A stretch of 64,000 bases of DNA from Candidatus Latescibacterota bacterium (GCA_965221775.1 CBDCSU010000006.1:1088001-1152000), one strand, 5' to 3'. Counted from the first letter of the stretch, positions 10,826 to 22,598 are shown. Translations and numbers: made by a program. Notes: a model not told the origin generated them from the sequence alone.

Positions 10826-10902
10826 GTCCTTCCATCTTGCGAATGTTGGGGGGTGCCCATAGTTTCGAGCGCCTCCGCAGCACCCGCGTCAGTTCCCGCG
10901 TC

Positions 10903-10977
10903 GCTCCCATCGTCTAACGGTCAGGACTCCAGATTTTCAATCTGGCAACCGGGGTTCGACTCCCCGTGGGAGCACCA
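10903..10977 (+). tRNA. tRNA-Glu(TTC)
   Basis: GCTCCCA/TGGGAGC acceptor stem, CCAGA-TTTTCAA-TCTGG anticodon arm, GGTTCGACTCC T-arm, encoded CCA. Confidence 0.97.
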
Positions 10978-11002
10978 AACTACCTATTTCGTGCTGTTCC
11001 AC

Positions 11003-11764
11003 GTGGACAAGATCGGGCGCGAGGACGTGCTGGCCGTCCTGACGCCGATTTGGACCGACAAGCCTGAAACGGCTCGCCGGGTGCGCCGGAGCATCAAGGA
11101 CACACTCGCTTGGGCGCAGGCACACGGCTTCATCGAGCACAACGTGGCGGGAGAGGCCATTGACGGTGCGTTGCCATCCCTGACCAGCGTCAAGAAGCAC
11201 CTTCGAGCCCTGCCCTATCAGGAAGTCGCCGGGGCCTTGGAGACCGCGCAGGCGTCCAATGCCTCGCTGTCGGTCAAGCTCTGCATCCGCTTTCTCGTGC
11301 TGACGGCTTCACGTAGCGGGGAGGCTCGGGGAGCCAGGTGGAGCGAAATCGACTTGGAAGCCCGTGAATGGCGCATCTCCGCTAGCCGGATGAAGGCCGG
11401 CGCCGAGCACCGCGTACCTCTGTGTGACGCCGCCCTCTCAGTGCTTGAACAGGCCCGGGATCTCGATGATGGGAGTGGGTTGGTCTTCCCCTCTCCCTCT
11501 CGCCAAGGGAAGCCCTTGAGCGATATGGCCTTGACCAAATTGCTCCGGGACAACGGCCTTGCCGAACGCACCACGGTCCACGGGTTCCGATCCGCGTTCA
11601 GGACCTGGGCGGACGAGGCTACGGATGCCGACCATGCAATCAAGGAGTTGTCCCTCGCCCATGCCGTGGGCTCACAAGTTGAGCGCGCCTATGCCCGGTC
11701 GGATCTGCTGTCCAAGTGCCGTGAGCTGATGAGCCAGTGGGGAGATTTCGTCACCGGCAGCTGA
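11003..11764 (+). pseudogene. P4-like tyrosine integrase, N-terminally truncated
   Basis: Catalytic R (SRSGEARG), K (MKAG), HGFR, LAH, Y (RAYARS) present; arm-binding N-terminus absent. Confidence 0.85.
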
Positions 11765-12820: not shown

Positions 12821-14144
12821 ATGGCGTCAAAGTCCCAAGTTCTAGAGGAGTTTTCTCTTTTCTCAGTCCCGACAGGGGGTATCGGCAGTTGGTTGACGAA
12901 GGATACTCATGACGATGTCTTCGCCCGCCTCGCAAAGATCAGTGAGCATCCGCTGCCTGCTGGGCAACTGAACCAACTGTTGGTCCTTGCACATGAAGCA
13001 CCCGTTAGCGACGGATTCTTTGAGTACTACTGGCTCAAGGCGCCCGAACAGCACTGCTACGACGTGCGAGATCTCCCCGGCTATTCCGAAGACTTCCTTG
13101 CTTCAGGGAGTTTCATTACCTCTCTATCTCATCTGAAGTGGGGGCTCTACCGCCTGTATGTCGATGGCCTTCTGTTCTTCGGGAACATCCGCTCCGCGTT
13201 TCACGGCCTTCGTGATCTGAGAGTGTGCGACCTAGAAGCGTTCTTCCGCGCTGAACGACTGGACACAGAGGCTATGAGGCAACGGGGTCCAACTCTGCCT
13301 TTGAAGTTGATTCCGAAGGACAGTCGGTATCTCATTTCGGAAATGGCATGCAAGTCTTACGGGGATACGCCTGGAGTAGAGGGTGATCTCGGAGAGTTCC
13401 TTCTCGAAGCCTATCGAAGACATGCTGCAGCGGGGAATCCCTCGCCAACGATTCGGCAGCTGTTGCATGAGGACGTTCCTGATGCGCGAGGTGGCCCTCT
13501 ACAACACGCAACAGTACCTCTCCGTGCTAAGTGAACTCGATGTCTATGTTGCCACTAGTATGAGGACGCGAGAAGACTTCCGGAAAATGGCCGATACTTG
13601 CCAGACGATTTTCTCTAGTCCCGAACTGAAGAAGATGCATCTTCGCCACTTCGATCCGACGCTCAGTGCCGCCGCGGGACACGAAGACAAAGGACTGATC
13701 GAGTGTCTGATGGTGAAGTGCGCCAAGGTCCTTGTATATTGCGCTGGAGAGAAGGAGAGCTACGGAAAAGACGCAGAGGCGGCGATGGCACTGAGTCTTG
13801 GAAAGCCAGTGATCTTCTACTCCGACCAAGAGCAGCGAAGCAGATTTTATCGCGATGTGCATCCGCTGAGTCGTCTCATTGAGTTTGAAACTGGTGTGGC
13901 GGTTGGAGCAATGGTAACGGACAGTCCTGAGGAGGTCTCGCAGCTTCTTTGCAGGATTTTCCAGAACCGGATGGAGTATCGCCTTGAACAGCCGAAGCGC
14001 GGCTTTCTACGCCTCAAGGAGAAGCTAACTGACTCGGTTGTTCGTCTCCAGACGGATGACCAGCTTCTTAGCGAAGCATTCTGGAATCACTATCACAGAG
14101 AAGAGAAGAGGGCTAAGAGAGGTGTGGGAGGAAACTACGGGTGA
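12821..14144 (+). pseudogene. Frameshifted gene with C-terminal nucleoside 2-deoxyribosyltransferase (NDT)-like domain
   Basis: ORFs 12821-13534 and 13383-14144 appear to join near 13480-13490; DVYVATS...FDP...SYGKDAEAAMALSLGKPVIFY resembles NDT fold. Confidence 0.6.
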
Positions 14145-14604: not shown

Positions 14605-15123
14605 ATGACAGATCGATCTCTTACAGACTGCAAGCGACGGCTGCTCGTTCTGTCTTGCTCGCGCCGGAAACGGGTGTCCGAGCGACCCATGCCGGCGATC
14701 GAGCGATACAATGGACCGCTATTCTTGACCTTGCGTCGCTTCCTGCGTATCTGTCCAGAGGGAGCGGGGCCGCTAGACATTTACGTCTTGTCGGCCGCCC
14801 ATGGGCTTATCCCCGGAGGGAAGCCAATCAAGTGGTATGATCGGAGAATGGACTTGAGAAGAGCGATTGAGTTGCAGCCCTCGGTCAAGAGAGCATTCTC
14901 AGAACTCCTACGGAACAACAGCTATTGCTCAATGTGCTTGGCACTCGGAAGGCTGTACTCTAGGGCGCTTGATGACTGGCAAGAGCTGATTCCATCAGAT
15001 GCGGAATGCACAATCGCTAAGGGTCCCTTAGGAGCAAAGGCCCGCGAGCTGAAGAGGTGGCTAAACGGCCCAGAAATAGAGCCACTGCAACAATTGCAGG
15101 AGCAACCAAATGGTCCGCATTGA
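14605..15123 (+). CDS. DUF6884 / YaaA-like protein
   Basis: LLVLSCSRRK, PAIERYNGPLF, IYVLSAAHGLI, YDRRM, LGRLY. Confidence 0.75.
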   Translation: MTDRSLTDCKRRLLVLSCSRRKRVSERPMPAIERYNGPLFLTLRRFLRICPEGAGPLDIYVLSAAHGLIPGGKPIKWYDRRMDLRRAIELQPSVKRAFSELLRNNSYCSMCLALGRLYSRALDDWQELIPSDAECTIAKGPLGAKARELKRWLNGPEIEPLQQLQEQPNGPH

Positions 15124-15457
15124 AATATTGGAGATAGGACCGGGAGAAGATGAAGCAAAGACGAAGAGAAGAATCGAAATAGACGCAATTGACCCATCGC
15201 AAATACCTCCGGTAAACCAAAGAGCCGGCAGTCTGATCGCGATGCCCGAAATTGAGGGAATCATCGACGAAATCACTCCGATGGATCAGGGGGAGGATCA
15301 GGAGCTGTATTATGCGAGAAACGTGCCCGTTCTCGAAGATGGGAATCTGGCGCGGACTCCGCTAGATCTCCCACACCATACAGGCCTACGAGTTGTGCTA
15401 GAGAGTATTCTTAGGGAATATGGTACGCCGGATAACCTCCAGATACGCCTTAGCTGA
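15110..15457 (+). CDS. Small acidic hypothetical protein
   Basis: AGGAG RBS; overlaps upstream gene and ends 11 nt before next. Confidence 0.65.
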   Translation: MVRIEILEIGPGEDEAKTKRRIEIDAIDPSQIPPVNQRAGSLIAMPEIEGIIDEITPMDQGEDQELYYARNVPVLEDGNLARTPLDLPHHTGLRVVLESILREYGTPDNLQIRLS

Positions 15458-15468
15458 AGGGGGCTTGT

Positions 15469-16575
15469 ATGGCGCAGATTCTATCTCTTGGGGAATTCAA
15501 GACAGCCGCCGGCAGACATCTGTGCAAAGGCACTTGGACTCTAGAATATCACGACCGAACGCATCTGCCAAGGGGTGCTTTCGTTGCTCTTGCAAGCATC
15601 GAGATCGAAGATGGAGGACCAGGTGGCAACTGGTTTTTTCGCTTCGAGCCCAAGTCGCACACTGGTCTCGCGAAGGGTTTCGAAGCCGCTGAGAAGCTCT
15701 TCAGCAAGGGAATGGAAGCGACGAAGGCGGCTAAGGTTAGCCTGGATCAAATCAGGGAGTCGTTGGTTCGAGTGGGTCTCCTACAGCCGCGCTTTGAAAT
15801 AGAGGGTTCTCACTCTCTGGAGTGTAGTCGGTTTGCGATTGTCATATTGGATACCAACGCGCTGCGAAGTGGCTCGGCCTACCATCTACAGGAGCAATTC
15901 CCCGATACTCGGATTTGGATGGTCGTTCCAAGTGTCACATTGATGGAAATTGGGGAGAGGCTTGCTAGTGTGGCAAGCAGAGATAGAGGGGGATGTAAGC
16001 CTCAGAACAGTGCTCTCCTCAGGACGCGGCCCCAGGTTACAATTGCGCCTGGGGAGATAATGAGGATAAGGGAGCAGTTCCCTGCAGAGACGTTAGAACT
16101 AGCTCCGGAGTTGCTCCGCGTCTTTCGGGGCTACGAGACGAGACATGGGGACAAGGAGCCTGATCGAGTCTCCATCAACGACCGGCTGATTCTGGAGAGC
16201 ATTAAGGATCTTCAGCGGCAGCGCAATGTGTCCTCGGGCGTGTACTTGATGTCCGGAGACAAGGATATTTCCCGGTTGGCTCATCTTGAAGGGATTCAGA
16301 CGATTTTTCCGGAAGTGCCAGACCTGGAAACGACGGGCATCTACTCAGTGCGGTACTCGTTAGAGTCTCGCGCACATGTGGTGTGCTCCATCTTCCGACT
16401 GCTGTGGGACTTGGCCCATGTCTTCAGTTGTATCCGGATGAGCAGAGATGGAGCGCCGGGCGGGGAGAGCGACTTGGCACTGTCCTACTACTACGAGTCA
16501 AAGCTGGTGAAGGATTGGGCAGACGACAAACTGGAGGTGCAAGTTGGACCCGGTTGTCCCAGCGACGCTGTTTAG
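15469..16575 (+). CDS. PIN-domain nuclease with N- and C-terminal extensions
   Basis: ILDTNAL, VPSVTLMEI, INDRLIL, LMSGDKD acidic active-site pattern. Confidence 0.8.
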   Translation: MAQILSLGEFKTAAGRHLCKGTWTLEYHDRTHLPRGAFVALASIEIEDGGPGGNWFFRFEPKSHTGLAKGFEAAEKLFSKGMEATKAAKVSLDQIRESLVRVGLLQPRFEIEGSHSLECSRFAIVILDTNALRSGSAYHLQEQFPDTRIWMVVPSVTLMEIGERLASVASRDRGGCKPQNSALLRTRPQVTIAPGEIMRIREQFPAETLELAPELLRVFRGYETRHGDKEPDRVSINDRLILESIKDLQRQRNVSSGVYLMSGDKDISRLAHLEGIQTIFPEVPDLETTGIYSVRYSLESRAHVVCSIFRLLWDLAHVFSCIRMSRDGAPGGESDLALSYYYESKLVKDWADDKLEVQVGPGCPSDAV

Positions 16576-17383
16576 CGTCTTGGACAGGTTGGCAACAAGG
16601 ATGGGGCCTGTCCGAATAGCCGATCTGGAATCTACGCGCCGGTTCTCCAATCGGCGCTTCGCTGAAATTGGGAGAGTAATCGAGGGCCTCGGCCTTGCGC
16701 AGCGGGTAGGCCAAACGCTAGTACCGACTGGAGCGTTGGGACCCTTTGTTTCCTATTGGGAGCAAGGAGATCTTGATGGGATTAGCGGTTTCTTTCAACG
16801 ATATGTCCCGTACGACGCTTTCCGTGGATACCTGCAAGCGGAGAGATGCATTGCTCTGCCGCGGAAGGGCGAGCGAGGGGCACGGCGCAGGATGGGCAAA
16901 GAGTTGAGGTCCGGCGGCACCGGACTGACCTTCGTAGCTATTGATACCTTCAAGTGGTGGGGGATGGCGGTCGGGGAGGTGTATCTGTCGCCCTTCGGAG
17001 AGAGAGAGATCTACTGGGGTGGGGAGCGGCCCGCATTGGATGAGTTCGAAGCAATACTACAAGTTGAGTATGCGGAGATCCGGCCATTGGATGGGTTCGC
17101 GAACGTTGGGAGGCTGGCGGACCGTGTCTGCCGGCAGCTTTGCATTTCATTTCCGTGCTTTGAGAGGCTCTTCCTGGGACTGTGGCAGCGCCGGAGGTTT
17201 GCCACGGGGACATCCTTACAGCGCGGCCACCGAGGAAGAGGGGCGATACAGATCCTTCGGCCTCGGTCAGAAGCAAAGAGGCGCGGACTCCCGGTTGAGT
17301 GGACGGCTAAGCGTTTTGTGGAGGACGGTTTGGTGATCCATGGCCGGAGCGTTAAGGTGGTCAAACTTAGGCCAGGGCCTTAG
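16544..17383 (+). CDS. Hypothetical basic protein, possibly tandem winged-helix DNA-binding
   Basis: Fills operon between PIN and ATPase; wHTH-like segments by eye (GLGLAQRVGQTLVPT; RLADRVCRQLCIS); start uncertain. Confidence 0.6.
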   Translation: MDPVVPATLFSVLDRLATRMGPVRIADLESTRRFSNRRFAEIGRVIEGLGLAQRVGQTLVPTGALGPFVSYWEQGDLDGISGFFQRYVPYDAFRGYLQAERCIALPRKGERGARRRMGKELRSGGTGLTFVAIDTFKWWGMAVGEVYLSPFGEREIYWGGERPALDEFEAILQVEYAEIRPLDGFANVGRLADRVCRQLCISFPCFERLFLGLWQRRRFATGTSLQRGHRGRGAIQILRPRSEAKRRGLPVEWTAKRFVEDGLVIHGRSVKVVKLRPGP

Positions 17384-17391
17384 GGACCCAA

Positions 17392-18624
17392 ATGGCAAGG
17401 AGGGCGATGCTTGTGGCTCGTTCAATTGGTGATCCAGATCTGGAGCAAATCCGGAGCGAGTTCAGTCAGGAGGTTCCTCGTAATCCGTACGAGGACTTCT
17501 TTCTGCTGGCGAATCCGTTTCCAGACCTTGGACAGTTCTGCGGGCTCTGCGTGAACCAAGAGTCGGTAAAGGCAGAATTCACCCGTGTACTTAGGGAACT
17601 GTACGGGGGATCGCAGTCCCGAGTGATGACCATACTGGGTAGCACAGGAGCGGGGAAGACGAATCTTCTACGGTTTCTCGAAGGGACACTGAAAGGCTGG
17701 AGAGAACCCGGTCCGGAGAGAAGAGCCATTACCGATCTGTTTACCGTGTTTGTTGAGCAGCCGCAGGGGAGCTACTTAGAAATGCACCGGCAGATCGTTG
17801 GTCAGTTGGGAGAGGTTTTCTTTAGCGAGTTCTTCACCAGAGTGCGTCGGGGCGAAGTTGACTTGGGGGAGCTATCTGAGGCATTGGGTGATGTGAACCC
17901 AGAATTGCTGCAAGCACTTCGGTACATTGCGGGGGCGGAGTCGGGACAACTGCCCTTGGGCGAACCGCGTTCGTACCGGCTGTTGGGCGACTGGTTGCAG
18001 GGCGGAAGGGTGGGGGTTGCGGAGAGGAGGAGACTGGGAAGCGTCTCCGCAGAGGTCGGAAGATCGGGTACCGTCGCCATTAGGTTTCTGTCAGACTTTG
18101 TTCGGGTCCTGTTGGAGGCGAAGCTTCTTAGGGGGTTAGTGATATTCGTCGATGAATTTGAGGAAGTGTTTTCCGGAGTGTCAGCGGCAAAGCAGGCGCA
18201 GTATGCTCAAGACTTGAGGAATTTGATCGATAGCCACCCGAAGGGAGTGGTCTTTGTCATCGGTACGGCACCGCTTGGTGAGCAACTGCAGAGTGTCTCG
18301 CCTCCCCTGCAGCGGCGTCTAGGAAGAGGGGTGGAGGTGGAGCCGATCGCGGATGAGAAGACTGCTCTGGAATACGCACAGGCGTACGTTGGGTGGGGTA
18401 GGGAGAGATTTGTGGAGGAGAGGCAAGTCCCGGTGTGTGTGCCAGAAGAGTGTGAGGAGAGAGACCAACCGTACTACCCGTTGTGTGAGGAGAGCGTGAA
18501 GGGAGTGTTCAGAGACCTGCAGGGGGAATTGGGATCCCAGGAGGTTGTGCCTGGTGACTTTCTTCCGGGGCTGAATTTTCTACTCTACAAGCGGGTCTAT
18601 GGAGAGGGGCGATGCGAGAGGTGA
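17392..18624 (+). CDS. AAA+ P-loop ATPase (BrxD/DUF2791-like)
   Basis: YEDFFLLANPF, Walker A GSTGAGKT, WLQG, Walker B GLVIFVDEFEE, putative Arg finger PLQRRL. Confidence 0.8.
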   Translation: MARRAMLVARSIGDPDLEQIRSEFSQEVPRNPYEDFFLLANPFPDLGQFCGLCVNQESVKAEFTRVLRELYGGSQSRVMTILGSTGAGKTNLLRFLEGTLKGWREPGPERRAITDLFTVFVEQPQGSYLEMHRQIVGQLGEVFFSEFFTRVRRGEVDLGELSEALGDVNPELLQALRYIAGAESGQLPLGEPRSYRLLGDWLQGGRVGVAERRRLGSVSAEVGRSGTVAIRFLSDFVRVLLEAKLLRGLVIFVDEFEEVFSGVSAAKQAQYAQDLRNLIDSHPKGVVFVIGTAPLGEQLQSVSPPLQRRLGRGVEVEPIADEKTALEYAQAYVGWGRERFVEERQVPVCVPEECEERDQPYYPLCEESVKGVFRDLQGELGSQEVVPGDFLPGLNFLLYKRVYGEGRCER

Positions 18625-18645
18625 GGGGGGAGGGGGGAGGGGGGG
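18625..18645 (+). repeat. G6-A-G6-A-G7 homopolymer tract
   Basis: GGGGGGAGGGGGGAGGGGGGG directly after ATPase stop codon. Confidence 0.9.
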
Positions 18646-18762
18646 AGAGTTCGCCCAAGGATGGAGAGTTGAGTTGGTGGAATCGTGGCTTCATGTGTTC
18701 CGGCCCCGGCGGCTGGGAAGGAACGAGAAGTTGGCGTGGCTAGATTCTAGTGGCGATAGGGG

Positions 18763-19968
18763 ATGACCAAGGCTCTTCTATCGACCTTCGACGTGCCTGG
18801 GCTATTTGCTAGCTATCGGATCGGGGACTATCCGAGTGCTGGGCTACGTTGCCACCCGTGGAGGTTGACCCAGACGAAAGGGATATTGCTCAATGCGTTT
18901 GACCTACTGGCGAATAGGCGAACCCGGAAGTCTGTAGCCGAGATGCGAAGTGGCGGGGGGCACTTGCACGAGTACGTTGAATTTGATGGTCCCCTGATCC
19001 TTGACTCAGGAGCGTTTAATTTCCTGCGGCGGGAGGAACTGACCATATCGGCTAGTGAGGTCCTATCGATTGGGATTGAACTGGGTGCGGATGTGTCGGT
19101 TGTACTGGACCACCCATTCACGCCCACGACAGATAGTGATGAAGTTGAGAGGCGCTGGGCGAACACTGTGAGGAACACCCGGGAGATGTTTCGTGCGCTG
19201 GAGGGGGTCAACCCTTCTCTTCTTTCGGAGGGCTTTAGGCTGATACCAGTTGTCCACGGCCATAATGAAGAGAGTCTTTCGAAGGGCATAGAGGACATTA
19301 GGGAGATTCTGGGACGGGAGCCGGAGATCCTTGGAATCGGGAGCCTAGCACCGCTTGCGCTGAATGGCAGCAAACGTACGGTTGTAGAGGTCATTACGGA
19401 GACGAGGAGGCTATTGCCGAGTACGCACCTGCATTGTTTCTCGCTTGGTTCCGCGCTACTGATGCTCCTGGCCTTTTACTGCGGGGCAGACAGCGTTGAT
19501 TCGCAAACCTGGATGATGAGTGCTGCGTTCAAGCAAGTGCAATTGCCGGGCTTGCACCTGACCCGTTTCTCACGCCGTGAGGCTGAGAGGAATCCTGAAA
19601 GGTATGGACGGGATCGTGGGGTATTCGCCGACCACCTTGTCCGGCTTATTGGAGAGGAGAGTTTCTGCCCGAAGGATTGGGACACGGGAGAGGCTTGGCC
19701 AATCAGGGATGAGCGAGATGCGTTGGCATACATTGAGTATCTGGAAGATGGTCCGGGAGAGAACCATGTTCATCGACGCGCATGTCACAATTTGCATGTG
19801 TTCAACTTTGAGGCTGGCCGCGTTCGAAGGGAGATGAGTGTAGGCTCCCTCGATAGCTTCGTGGAAAGGCGTATCGAGGGAACGGTGTATCGAAGAGTGT
19901 GGGAATATGCACGTGAGAGGAAGGTGAGGAAGGGCACCCTAGGCGATTGCTATAGCGGGATTTCCTGA
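18763..19968 (+). CDS. Divergent tRNA-guanine transglycosylase (TGT/DpdA-like) family protein
   Basis: LILDSGAF, VLDHP, IPVVHG, GIGSL, HLHCFSLG, GADSVDS, CHNL; no CxCxxC zinc motif. Confidence 0.85.
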   Translation: MTKALLSTFDVPGLFASYRIGDYPSAGLRCHPWRLTQTKGILLNAFDLLANRRTRKSVAEMRSGGGHLHEYVEFDGPLILDSGAFNFLRREELTISASEVLSIGIELGADVSVVLDHPFTPTTDSDEVERRWANTVRNTREMFRALEGVNPSLLSEGFRLIPVVHGHNEESLSKGIEDIREILGREPEILGIGSLAPLALNGSKRTVVEVITETRRLLPSTHLHCFSLGSALLMLLAFYCGADSVDSQTWMMSAAFKQVQLPGLHLTRFSRREAERNPERYGRDRGVFADHLVRLIGEESFCPKDWDTGEAWPIRDERDALAYIEYLEDGPGENHVHRRACHNLHVFNFEAGRVRREMSVGSLDSFVERRIEGTVYRRVWEYARERKVRKGTLGDCYSGIS

Positions 19969-19983
19969 CGTGTATGTGTATTT

Positions 19984-20353
19984 TGTACAGTGACGGTAAT
20001 GACCTGACACTGCCCCTGCTCGGGGATGAGGGTAGCGGCGATTTTCTGCATGGCAGCCTCCTTGGCTCGGGGCTTGGTTGGGACCCCCTTCTTGAAAGCC
20101 TGCAGCGGCGTCAGGCCGTTCATGTTGCGGCCCTGGTGGGGGCGCTTCTCGTTGTACTGGACCAGGTAAGCATCCAGATCCTTCTGCATCGGGTCAATCG
20201 ACTCATACCAGGTCTTGCGGGCCCACGACGCGGAAGTGCCCGTCGAGAATGGTCCGGTGCAGTCGCTCCAAGAAGCCGTTGGTCTGGGGACTCTTCATCT
20301 TGGTGGTGCGGTGCTCGATCCCTTCCAGCTGCAGGAAGAACTCATAGGGATGC
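19984..20353 (-). mobile_element. IS481-family remnant (transposase 3' part plus terminal repeat)
   Basis: GIEHRTTK..PQTNGFLERLHRT, frameshift, YNEKRPHQG; end sequence TGTACAGTGACGGTAATGACCTGACAC. Confidence 0.8.
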
Positions 20354-20380
20354 CGAATTCGCGCAGTTAGGGAACACGTA

Positions 20381-20820
20381 GGTACAAACCGGGTTGATGG
20401 TAACACTTCTGACCGGTTTGATGCGTGACACTCCCCGGTATCTTGGACCGACCCCCAAGCAGGAGGTTGGTCGATGCCGTGGATGGAGACCGCACCCGTG
20501 GAGCAGAGAGAGCGATTCATCGCTGATCATCGACCCGGTCACTTGACGATGACGGAGCTGTGCCGACGATACGGCATCAACCGCAGACGGGCTACAAGTG
20601 GCTTCGACGACACGCCGACGAGGGGCGGCCGGGCCTGCAGGACCGCAGCCATGCGCCGCACCACTGCCCCCACCGCCTGGAGCCGGAGATCGCCGGGCTG
20701 ATCCTCCGGGCGCGGCGACGGCATCCCGACTGGGGGCCTCGGAAACTGCTGACCTGGCTGACGTCCCGTCACCCGAGGATCTCGTCGTGGCCAGCGGTCA
20801 GCACGGCGGGCGATCCGAGA
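20381..20820 (+). mobile_element. Second IS481-family remnant (left end plus transposase 5' part, frameshifted)
   Basis: MPWMETAPVEQRERFI...ELCRRYGI / QTGYKWLRR...LQDRSHAP...HPDWGPRKL; end has repeated ACCGGxTTGATG..ACACT boxes. Confidence 0.8.
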
Positions 20821-21799
20821 CCGGCACAGGACCCTGAATGACCGTATCGAGACGACATTCTTCGGCCAATCTCTGGACTTGGGAGCGTCTGGTATGGGCT
20901 ACACGCTCAACAATGACGGCGGGGGGCTGGGCAAGTTCAACGTCGGTGGATCGTTCGTGAATGGCGAGCCAGTGCTCGACGGGGAGTTTGAGTTGGCCCG
21001 CCGGCAGAAGATTGATGTCAGGCTCTCCAACCTCCAAGTGGCCTACTTGGTGAAGTATGGAGCGATCGCGGTCGGGTACATCCCCAAGCAGTGAGCACGT
21101 TAGGAGGAAGCAGTGGCCTGCGGCATTTCGGCGCCAGAACAGTAATCATGCGGCGGCTAGCGGAGTTGCCTGGAACCTGATGAACTCTCCATCCAAGACG
21201 AGTACGCAGAGCGTCGCGGAACGGCAAGCGAAGTACAATCGCAAGGACGACCAGGAGTAGATCGGCCTTTGGACAAGAAAACTCTTTGAGAAAGGAAGTG
21301 CCTGATCGCAGAGCCTGTTGTCATGAACGAGCAGCCCGTCCTCTCCATAGGAGACGCAGAACGTATCGTCTACATGGACAAAGAGGAAGGGTGGGCGGTT
21401 GTGGCTTTAGGCAAAGAGACCCGTAACCGTCTTGGGATTCGATGGTTCAAGTCACGAAGTGGATGCCGGGGACTTTCCAAGCCATTCTTTCAGGCGTCAC
21501 GGAGCATTTAGCCACATCCACTCAAGGGTTCCTTGAAGCGGAGTAAAGTGTTTCTGAGCAGTATCCTTCGTAGGAAGGTGTTGTCACGGTAGAGCCGGTA
21601 GATTGGCCGGAGGCATGGGAAGCTCTCGACGAGCTTCCCGCACAAGCCAGGGCGCATCTTGTTTGGTATCCCGGCGTGTCCTGGATGGATTGATGGGGAG
21701 TAGGGTGGCGGCACCATTTACGCCCCGGCGTCATCCACAACACCGACGGGACAGTCCGGTTGTGAGAAGTGAGCCAGCTGCGCCCATTCTGGACTACGG

Positions 21800-22598
21800 C
21801 ACATACCGCGGATACCGCGTGCCGGTCGCTGCCGCCCGGGACCTGTGTGAACGTGAAGGTCTGCCTCGACCACGCCGCCTGAAGCGGATCATGCGCGGCG
21901 AGGTGAATGCGTCGTCCCGTCTCGACTTTGACGATGCAGCTCCGCTGATACTCAAGGTCTGGGTCCGAACGTCGGACCCGGAGCGAATGCGGCATGCAGA
22001 GTCTGTCGCTCGCCAACTCCGGCAACTGACTGGTGTACCGACGCCTTCATGGAAGACTGCGGGCTCGTCTTGAGAGAGATGCACGAGTCCGGCATCGATG
22101 TCCCAGGTCCCGCGGACGCGCAGGCATGGGCCGATGAAGACCTCACCCGATTCGCCCACTCCGTTGAGCAGCTCAATGACCAGGCCTGGATCCAGAGCCA
22201 TGCTCGATCGAGCTGTGCGCTTGTGGAAGGGAAACTCGAGTCTGCTTCAGGAGGCAGGGGGACTGTCTTTCGTCCACTATGACTTCCAGCCACACAACCT
22301 CCGAGTCGAGCCTGTCTCCGGTCGAATCGTCTCGGTCCTCGATCTGGATAACAGTACGCGCGGCCCGGCGTTCTCGGATATCAGAGATCTCCTGCTGACG
22401 GTCTTCGTCCCGGATCCCGGTTCGGCAGAACCGTTCTGGCGGGCGTATGGCCCTGTGGATGAGCAGAGGAGACTGGTCTTGCGCCTGCACTCACTCGCTC
22501 GAGTGCTCGATGTCCTCCGGGCCTACGCAGGCCCCGCTCCAGGAGGATGGAACCACACCACAGTGGCGACCTTGCTTGAGGACATAGAGACGGCCTAG
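21800..22598 (+). pseudogene. APH/choline-kinase-like phosphotransferase, frameshifted
   Basis: GEVN..LILKV N-lobe in one frame, middle in another, VHYDFQPHNL...VLDLD in third; start approximate. Confidence 0.65.

Follow-up and report, generated by a model that had tools for sequence, protein, structure and literature searches.

Why a homologue of tRNA-guanine transglycosylase (TGT) should stand in one tight gene cassette with a nuclease, a winged-helix protein and an ATPase is the question raised by positions 14605-19968 of a stretch of 64,000 nucleotides (nt) from Candidatus Latescibacterota bacterium (GCA_965221775.1, CBDCSU010000006.1:1088001-1152000), which in its full length is called the window and to which the coordinates refer. 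Dpd, composed of DpdA-DpdB-DpdC and DpdD-K, is a restriction-modification island based on 7-deazaguanine that is known from Salmonella Montevideo, among others, and an earlier note on this DNA had proposed the cassette as a candidate new defence system that joins a DpdA/DpdC-like marking module to a module resembling bacteriophage exclusion (BREX). The best reading of the cassette at present is that it is Dpd-like on its marking side, outside the DpdA family as curated, and equipped with a new effector module. With moderate confidence, the TGT and a DpdC-like DUF6884 protein can be considered a DNA-marking pair that would use 7-cyano-7-deazaguanine (preQ0) of the host and that would be coupled to a new effector module consisting of a PIN nuclease, an acidic protein, a winged-helix protein and an ATPase.

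The six genes, labelled g1 to g6, are all encoded on the + strand, contain zero internal stop codons and together span about 5.4 kb. The cassette starts with g1 (14605-15123, 172 amino acids (aa)), which encodes a DUF6884 protein of the YaaA-like, DpdC-like kind and overlaps by 14 nt with g2 (15110-15457, 115 aa), encoding a small acidic protein with an isoelectric point (pI) of 4.5. After a gap of 11 nt follows the PIN-domain nuclease gene g3 (15469-16575, 368 aa), into the end of which the tandem winged-helix protein gene g4 (16544-17383, 279 aa), with its TTG start, reaches by 32 nt; 8 nt behind g4 begins g5 (17392-18624, 410 aa), coding for a P-loop ATPase of the AAA_22/AAA_16/BrxD-like kind, and 138 nt behind g5 the TGT-family transglycosylase gene g6 (18763-19968, 401 aa). 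Positions, overlaps and gaps of these open reading frames (ORFs) agree with the tightly spaced, intact and co-oriented gene set described in the earlier note.

Whether these genes belong together can be judged from 25 related loci (numbered with the prefix L) which were recovered by TGT scans, 6 from species genomes and 19 from metagenomes, and on which the six proteins were mapped by tblastn and the ORFs listed. In 17 loci the DNA before the TGT gene extends over 4.5 kb or more, and 14 of these carry g1-g6 in the order of the window, the exceptions being L001, L026 and L028. Because the same order recurs in 14 of 17 loci, the gene arrangement is far beyond chance, and the co-occurrence elsewhere on which the earlier proposal depended is borne out. 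After near-identical loci (L020 and L021, which are equal; L024, which is close to L027 and 97% identical to L023; L031 and L033) had been collapsed, about 10 distinct full cassettes remain besides the one in the window. Seven shorter contigs include some upstream DNA, with g5 located directly before the TGT gene in six of them and g1 at this place in L019, while L034 offers zero upstream DNA. The full cassettes fall into two subtypes, between which the TGTs are about 65% identical, g1 about 50% and g3-g5 only 31-34%.

The distribution of the cassette is sporadic and island-borne. Of 168 genomes of the host phylum, 6 (this one included) encode a TGT of the clade, compared to none of the 9 genomes of the same genus; the uncultured bacteria named as sources of the clade in the records include Latescibacterota, Poribacteria and Anaerolineae. 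Individual sister loci show particularities. In L001 (4700-7400), a transposase gene of insertion sequence (IS) type takes the place of g1-g2, g3 is clipped and the PIN motif GDKD is changed to RDKA, and in L020 and L021 g3 contains one in-frame stop codon and g4 an insertion of about 75 aa. Equally, in L002, L003, L006 and L017, all of one subtype, the approximately 3.3 kb upstream of g1 encode a DUF1156 DNA methyltransferase of about 940 aa and a GIY-YIG protein of 122-124 aa, genes that have the same orientation as g1 and lie 18-36 nt upstream of it as if co-transcribed; in L004, of the same subtype as L002, and in L025, of the window's subtype, this place is taken by an HNH_2 gene.

The most conserved component of the cassette is the TGT-family enzyme itself. 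With 68.4 bits to PF01702 (cut-off 26.3), g6 is a member of the TGT superfamily, but it remains below the cut-offs of the curated models for archaeosine TGT (ArcTGT; TIGR00432, 74 bits, equivalog cut-off 350) and bacterial tRNA Tgt (TIGR00430, 26.3 bits, cut-off 306.75), as well as below that for DpdA; in PADLOC, the DpdA model matches g6 with 22 bits (E 1.5e-5) and no Cap10 model outscored DpdA. The catalytic aspartates are intact, with the motifs DSGAF at residues 81-85 and GADSVDS at 241-247, and CxCxxC is absent. The claim that the enzyme keeps its catalytic residues and has lost the zinc motif of canonical tRNA TGTs extends to the whole family as sampled: at least 376 homologues were obtained at E<=1e-10, the best 120 of which, used for the motif counts, share 57-67% identity with g6 and have, in nearly all cases, a length of 384-418 aa (357-358 aa in three), and while LDSG, LDHP and VDSQ with the three active-site aspartates occur in 120/120 of these, CxCxxC occurs in 0/120. 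In 20 aligned members D81, D116 and D246 are invariant, and g6 has retained the histidine (H342) of the HN motif. CxCxxC is present in the Tgt of the host, in cyanobacterial DpdA fusions, in haloarchaeal plasmid TGTs and in the Aulosira TGT.

In a tree of 22 rows, 14 of them belonging to the g6 clade and ArcTGT, Salmonella-type DpdA, phage DpdA1-4 and Cap10 not being included, the g6 clade has 100/100 support and a long stem, with the TGT of L028 branching first inside, and the host Tgt, which scores 543.6 bits to PF01702 and has CGCPTC, falls outside; the deep branching among the TGT groups is not settled in this tree. By its own clade and its position below the curated cut-offs the enzyme is thus set apart from ordinary tRNA Tgt, in line with what had been expected. 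The solved relative nearest by sequence is ArcTGT 1iq8, to which phmmer aligned two stretches of g6, both within chain residues 73-337 of 582, so that g6, as judged from this alignment, has nothing that corresponds to the C-terminal half of ArcTGT by which tRNA is bound. The TGT search in phage records gave 5 weak matches (2 of them RefSeq duplicates), each in a Sulfolobus spindle virus, whereas a close phage DpdA was not among them. Equally, no long fused TGT form was found at E<=1e-10, which is weak evidence.

The partner of the TGT at the other end of the cassette, g1, scores 29.9 bits to PF21818 (DUF6884; cut-off 30) and carries the two motifs named by the authors of the Pfam family in the available part of their report (PMC11701544), CxxxK (C18..K22) and LSAxxG (62-67); SCSxxK and LSAxxG are invariant across 12 g1 orthologues, of which those of L026 (48.4 bits), L028 (40.9) and L020 (38.9) pass the PF21818 cut-off. 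The PADLOC model PDC-M57A matches g1 at 2.3e-6, and the L028 orthologue matches four PADLOC DpdC models, the best at 3e-11. According to the consulted part of the GATOR-GC preprint, Pfam DUF6884 matches DpdC, and one DUF6884 member is listed among reported abasic-lesion binders in what is available of PMC11701544. Furthermore, DUF6884 is found fused to proteins annotated as DpdA or Tgt in 5 plasmid records. The g1 of the window consists of the core domain only, without the additional conserved C-terminal domain of about 85 aa which the orthologues of L020, L023, L024, L026, L030 and L031 possess and which reads ...WYVEVDD.RVAPKWL...LTGLPVS.FT..EAR.VL..LG.... Many Enterobacter and Citrobacter plasmids carry a DUF6884 gene that stands alone, one such gene being annotated as 'tgtA5 cluster protein 2', and in the only region of this kind inspected, L038 from a Citrobacter plasmid, there is no TGT within 9 kb of the DUF6884 gene, so that the family functions apart from TGTs as well.

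The TGT clade is genomically linked to genes of preQ0 supply. Directly upstream of g1, a gene of Vut_1/YhhQ type is found in 9 of the 25 loci (L019, L020, L021, L023, L024, L027, L030, L031 and L033; about 5 distinct), and the 3 of these 9 transporters that were checked all pass the model TIGR00697, 'queuosine precursor transporter', with 124-128 bits against a cut-off of 50.95. The locus L028, the TGT of which belongs to the g6 clade, contains in this order a DpdJ-like helicase (228 bits), a phospholipase D (PLD) protein, a 748-aa protein, QueC, QueE, QueD, DUF6884 and TGT, with QueC, QueE and QueD all above their equivalog cut-offs. In L019 the transporter, DUF6884 and TGT genes are situated beside a DruE-like helicase of 1840 aa with a PLD domain, and in L026 DUF6884 and TGT are followed by two genes of no assigned family and HerA. 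The constant pair is thus TGT and DUF6884, and its surroundings vary among nucleases, helicases and translocases, alternative partners that act on DNA, joined in one subtype by the closely linked DUF1156 methyltransferase and GIY-YIG genes. A constant pair with varying partners corresponds to a marking module with swappable restriction arms, and g6 and g1 are therefore read as a DpdA/DpdC-like pair. The pairing put forward in the earlier note gains from L028, with its QueC/E/D, DpdC-matching DUF6884 and DpdJ-like helicase, and from the DUF6884-DpdA fusions of the 5 plasmid records.

The host can make preQ0, because two QueC genes, a QueD-type PTPS, QueF and Tgt are present in its genome, the QueC genes being encoded on another contig than the cassette. 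The suggestion that the base may come from the host is consistent with this gene set and with the importer that sister cassettes carry. Of the two QueC-type genes, one (contig C5:390741-391361 of the host genome G000, region L009) is located in a frame of 364 aa, which is longer than usual, and the second lies about 1.8 kb from QueF. With regard to RNA, neither a preQ1 riboswitch nor another relevant RNA family was detected in the window between 10 and 24 kb or in 9 sister loci. In L030, at 1792-1914 on the - strand and about 1.9 kb upstream of the transporter gene, a DUF3800-III RNA of Rfam was recognised with 65.4 bits (gathering threshold 43.8).

A comparable association is seen at greater distance in haloarchaeal plasmids, which were reached through weak tblastn matches and of which L012 (Haloarcula pHsi139) and L014 (a Halorientalis plasmid) are the examples. 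These clusters resemble the cassette in that DUF6884, TGT, a g4-like protein and a BrxD-like ATPase stand beside preQ0-synthesis genes (queE and queD in L012; queC, folE, queE and queD in L014), the neighbours being a 968-aa protein composed of a degenerate TGT and DUF6884, a 344-aa TGT, a 293-aa protein and the ATPase. The haloarchaeal ATPase passes PF10923 at 61 bits, and g5 is 23% identical to it (BLASTP E 1e-16); the 293-aa protein aligns to the g4 profile in hhalign with a probability of 81.9% and E 1.1e-5 over 205 columns, while BLASTP between the two is not significant. In all 9 haloarchaeal plasmids that matched both queries, DUF6884 and TGT share one strand and are 0.4-6 kb apart. On the other hand, the clusters differ from the cassette in gene order, in the fusion of DUF6884 into the 968-aa protein with a second, degenerate TGT domain, in a TGT that keeps CxCxxC and falls outside the g6 clade, and in the absence of a PIN gene and a small acidic gene. 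In L012 a gene for an EVE-domain protein and one for a PD-(D/E)XK nuclease are located nearby. No description of the haloarchaeal cluster was found in the literature searched.

The proposed effector side of the cassette begins with g2 and g3. No family match was obtained for g2 in profile searches, and protein atlas scores, all <=0.81, gave no lead; every full cassette has a gene at this position, with conserved N- and C-terminal motifs, and the pI ranges from 4.3 to 5.2 across 12 orthologues. In g3, an N-terminal domain (approximately residues 1-120) is followed by the PIN domain (approximately 122-285) and a C-terminal beta-rich domain. The sequence reaches 21.4 bits to PF13638 (PIN_4; cut-off 21.9), and the PIN fold is confirmed at the level of the AlphaFold2 (AF2) model, which has a predicted local distance difference test (pLDDT) value of 74.8 and a predicted template modelling (pTM) score of 0.81: the top structural match is 9jxw_A (SiRe_0806; Z 12.6, root-mean-square deviation (rmsd) 5.0, 227 aligned residues), further PIN matches being an archaeal helicase PIN, Nmd4, Utp24, SMG6 and VapC, with 5f4h_A at Z 9.8 and 3i8o_A at Z 9.5. 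The acidic residues D128, E160, D238, D264 and D266 are invariant in 12 g3 sequences. A complex of g2 with g3 is predicted with ipSAE values of 0.83, 0.83 and 0.82 in three runs, the best control reaching 0.03; the runs share at least 97% of contacts, the partner pLDDT is at least 83, and in a benchmark of 80 complexes with solved structure 58 reach the same mark, as do 2 of 110 mismatched pairs, counts which are approximate for g2-g3, since this prediction used its own alignments. In the predicted interface, residues 72-103 of g2 face residues 292-310 of g3. The small acidic protein is thus predicted to be the partner subunit of the PIN protein.

A natural fusion of g3 and g4, P0263 of 641 aa, matches g3 in BLASTP at 2e-35 and the g4 profile at 1.5e-27 and includes a PIN_4 match. 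By itself g4, the most cassette-specific protein, matches no Pfam model, as is the case for all of its 116 homologues, and its profile retrieves at E<=0.001 only 74 cluster representatives among 1.84 billion. The AF2 model (pLDDT 86.5, pTM 0.85) shows a chain of winged-helix units, the N-terminal winged helix-turn-helix (HTH) of which is MarR-like (Z 7.8, rmsd 2.7, 79 aligned), the structural matches being single winged-helix domains with Z <8, a commonly reached level; Foldseek against the Protein Data Bank gave no match at E<=0.001. Among 13 orthologues of g5, neither Walker A (GxGAGKT, 83-90) nor Walker B (DEFE, 254-257) varies. The match to PF10923 (BrxC_BrxD) amounts to 18.3 bits (cut-off 22.2) with partial cover of the profile and that to NF033438 (BrxD) to 28.5 bits (cut-off 350), the likeness to BrxD being confined to residues of about 164-321; the PADLOC BrxD model matches the cassette at 1.1e-6, and AAA_22 and AAA_16 are also below their cut-offs. 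Of the BREX-like ATPase and winged-helix module envisaged in the earlier note, a P-loop ATPase and a tandem winged-helix protein hence remain, whereas the BrxD matches are partial and below threshold and a likeness of g4 to BrxA is presumptive.

In the proposed mechanism, g6 would swap guanine in the cell's own DNA for preQ0 supplied by the host queuosine pathway, following the double displacement chemistry of the TGT family with D81 as presumed acid/base, D116 in base recognition and D246 as nucleophile. Subsequently, g1 may act on the inserted base, perhaps on its nitrile, via the conserved Cys/Lys pair. The PIN nuclease g3, in complex with g2, would work with g4, while g5 might provide ATP-dependent engagement of nucleic acid, such that g2-g5 together would recognise and attack nucleic acid without the mark. 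Furthermore, g4 and g5 may replace DpdB in helping the TGT to reach DNA, because a similar pair accompanies the TGT in haloarchaea without a PIN gene. We infer DNA as the substrate, the nature of the mark, the restriction of unmarked DNA and an anti-phage function.

Compared to known systems, the cassette shares with Dpd a TGT-family enzyme together with a DUF6884/YaaA-type protein and, presumptively, Dpd's own reliance on preQ0 of the queuosine pathway; the sister locus L028 has, in addition, a DpdJ-like helicase and a PLD protein, and according to the part of the GATOR-GC preprint at hand, que genes or a transporter of YhhQ type frequently border Dpd islands. In contrast to Dpd, the TGT of the window fails the DpdA model and is without the zinc site, g1 matches no DpdC model, and the DpdD-K helicases are replaced by a PIN nuclease, its acidic partner, a tandem winged-helix protein and a BrxD-like ATPase. 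Equally, DpdB is missing from the window, no DndB/DGQHR match being present among the six genes or the scanned flanking ORFs, which agrees with the earlier note as far as the window is concerned; the statement does not extend to all sister loci, as L004, and only this locus, has a DGQHR/DndB-like gene right after the TGT.

In BREX-Related Capture (BRC), too, a TGT homologue is accompanied by ATPases of ORC/Cdc6 or STAND type and by a DNA-binding protein with multiple domains, and its authors propose, in the portion of their report consulted, that the ATPase acts in place of DpdB and that dPreQ0 marks self-DNA (PMC12839542). BRC is, however, defined by the universal HerA/FtsK, PglZ and DUF6079, and a DpdC homologue was not found by its authors as far as this portion states (PMC12839542), whereas the cassette of the window has a DpdC-like gene and a PIN nuclease, and HerA/FtsK, PglZ and DUF6079 have no match in the six genes or their flanks, which places the cassette outside BRC. 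With Cap9/Cap10 of type IV CBASS (cyclic-oligonucleotide-based anti-phage signalling system), as characterised in the available part of 10.1101/2025.04.06.647259, the cassette shares a TGT-fold enzyme with catalytic aspartates, an anti-phage role and 7-deazaguanine metabolism, the latter two only as proposed here; Cap10, however, works with the QueC-like Cap9 and a CD-NTase, neither of which is in the cassette, where the partner is DpdC-like instead. The similarity to BREX is restricted to a P-loop ATPase with partial resemblance to BrxD far below the family cut-offs, and PglX, PglZ, BrxC and BrxA were not seen among the scanned island ORFs. PADLOC recognises fragments of the cassette only (DpdA, BrxD, mad8 and PDC-M57A); no PADLOC system matches the architecture and no description was found in the literature searched, although related loci may be contained in the lists that accompany PMC12839542 and the GATOR-GC preprint. 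To this extent, the cassette does not correspond to an already described system, as the earlier note had anticipated.

Several observations speak against a Dpd-like DNA-marking system. Close kinship among many of the related loci means that their counts exaggerate independence, and some sister cassettes are decaying (L001 and, with respect to g3, L020/L021). With 28.8 bits, g6 remains below the DpdA model NF041059 (equivalog cut-off 200), and it is without the zinc site CxCx2Cx22H, which together with three aspartates is said to be conserved in the DpdA family in the available part of Gedara et al. (PMC10164549). Equally, g1 is 0.1 bit short of the DUF6884 cut-off and is matched by no PADLOC DpdC model at E<=1, and no transporter accompanies the cassette of the window, nor was a Vut_1 gene found in the genome (96.8% complete). 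The TGT, with 57-67% identity, is much more conserved than its partners and could therefore suit a universal substrate such as tRNA, and most of the closest PIN folds (SMG6, Nmd4, Utp24, VapC) belong to RNases, in better agreement with an effector that cleaves RNA than with restriction of DNA.

A system at the RNA level, in which TGT and DUF6884 mark RNA, most plausibly tRNA, with a derivative of 7-deazaguanine, and the PIN RNase spares marked and cuts unmarked RNA or shuts translation in an abortive infection, stays alive because of the RNase-like PIN folds, the highly conserved TGT suited to a universal substrate and the archaeal tRNA TgtA as nearest curated profile (74 bits vs 28.8 for DpdA); the best PIN matches after SiRe_0806 are RNA-processing domains, and the nearest solved relative is, as mentioned, ArcTGT 1iq8. 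This explanation is nevertheless considered unlikely, in view of the absence of the tRNA-binding half of ArcTGT from g6, the pairing of the same TGT clade with DpdJ-like, DruE-like plus PLD, HerA and DNA methyltransferase plus GIY-YIG proteins, and a constant partner of the DpdC/YaaA kind, which is described as DNA-binding in the consulted parts of PMC11701544 and the GATOR-GC preprint. A shade less probable still is outright restriction-modification of RNA, with the mark on the cell's own tRNA or other RNA and an RNase assembled from PIN protein, partner, winged-helix protein and ATPase that destroys unmarked phage-encoded or newly made RNA. The same low likelihood can be assigned to a cassette centred on modification or devoted to it alone, in which all six proteins install the mark, g4 and g5 are DpdB-like, the PIN complex processes or proofreads and a restriction arm does not exist, the purpose being either epigenetic control or the shielding of the DNA of the element or the host from foreign nucleases. 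Insertion of preQ0 by DpdA depends on the ATPase DpdB (PMC10164549, in its available part), Dpd islands without restriction operon are reported in the accessible text of the GATOR-GC preprint, and a g4-like protein and BrxD-like ATPase accompany the TGT in haloarchaeal clusters without a PIN gene, all of which speaks for such a cassette; its difficulty is that TGT and DUF6884 are also encountered without g2-g5 beside other nuclease or helicase modules (L019, L026, L028) and that base exchange does not need a nuclease with all acidic residues conserved.

Two further explanations concern other uses of the TGT reaction. In a regulatory deazaguanine transfer, similar to Cap10 or the proposed TIM-B systems, the TGT would handle a protein-linked base or release a soluble compound by which the PIN effector is held inactive before infection. 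Such roles have been shown or proposed for TGT-family enzymes (10.1101/2025.04.06.647259; 10.64898/2026.10.19.760177; both in the parts available), and the effector of the cassette has a tightly predicted small partner, but the cassette encodes neither a QueC-like conjugating enzyme nor a CD-NTase, the DpdC-like partner, like the Dpd-type surroundings in L028, speaks for DNA, and DpdA was not outscored by any Cap10 model in PADLOC, which makes this course improbable. Finally, modified invaders might be restricted, the TGT, acting as a glycosylase-like enzyme, stripping 7-deazaguanines from phage DNA, DUF6884 binding the lesion and the PIN complex finishing the attack. Although defence by glycosylases that attack phage DNA containing 7-deazaguanines is an established theme (10.1101/2025.10.29.685425, as far as available) and a DUF6884 member is counted among abasic-lesion binders (PMC11701544, likewise), linked importer and free-base biosynthesis genes suit insertion of the base and not its removal, and of the explanations weighed this is the most improbable one. 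Preference is thus given to the Dpd-like DNA-marking pair coupled to a new effector module.

The cassette is located on an island of about 11-23 kb with 52-64% G+C, compared to about 70% in its surroundings, the left edge of which is marked by tRNA-Glu(ttc) (10903-10977, + strand; identified by ARAGORN and by the Rfam tRNA model with 64.7 bits). The ORF of a truncated tyrosine integrase (10853-11764, + strand), the start of which overlaps the tRNA gene, contains only the domains Phage_int_M and Phage_integrase; HTH and rve fragments of IS481 type are situated at 20203-20838, and a kinase fragment at 22098-22595 covers only profile positions 165-237 of 239. Integrase, IS and kinase genes are therefore remnants, as the earlier note had perceived in its tRNA-linked island, and the island is horizontally acquired. 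A direct repeat of the tRNA end (attachment site, att) that would mark the far edge of the island was not found, and a scan for promoters and terminators yielded a number of sites not above that in shuffled sequences. Directly upstream of the cassette, at 12821-14144 on the + strand, two overlapping ORFs of 237 and 253 aa in different frames have no Pfam or PADLOC match and no tblastn counterpart in the 25 sister loci; in the protein atlas, the second ORF is assigned with 0.96 to an unnamed cluster, 0.92 to a cluster of 450-aa proteins and 0.90 to the nucleoside 2-deoxyribosyltransferase family, and the two may be one frameshifted defence-type gene of about 450 aa.

If the preferred reading is correct, marking of DNA by 7-deazaguanines would reach beyond the canonical Dpd island and phages, and would be performed in uncultured bacteria of several phyla by a separate, strongly conserved TGT clade without the CxCxxC zinc motif. 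The marking would equally be wired to interchangeable effector modules, among which the module of PIN protein, acidic partner, tandem winged-helix protein and ATPase is without a described counterpart. The six genes offer a compact test case for how a TGT might reach duplex DNA without DpdB, a candidate reader of the deazaguanine mark and a link between bacterial and haloarchaeal TGT-ATPase clusters. Furthermore, a TGT scaffold free of the zinc motif might be of interest for enzymology and for the site-specific labelling of nucleic acids.

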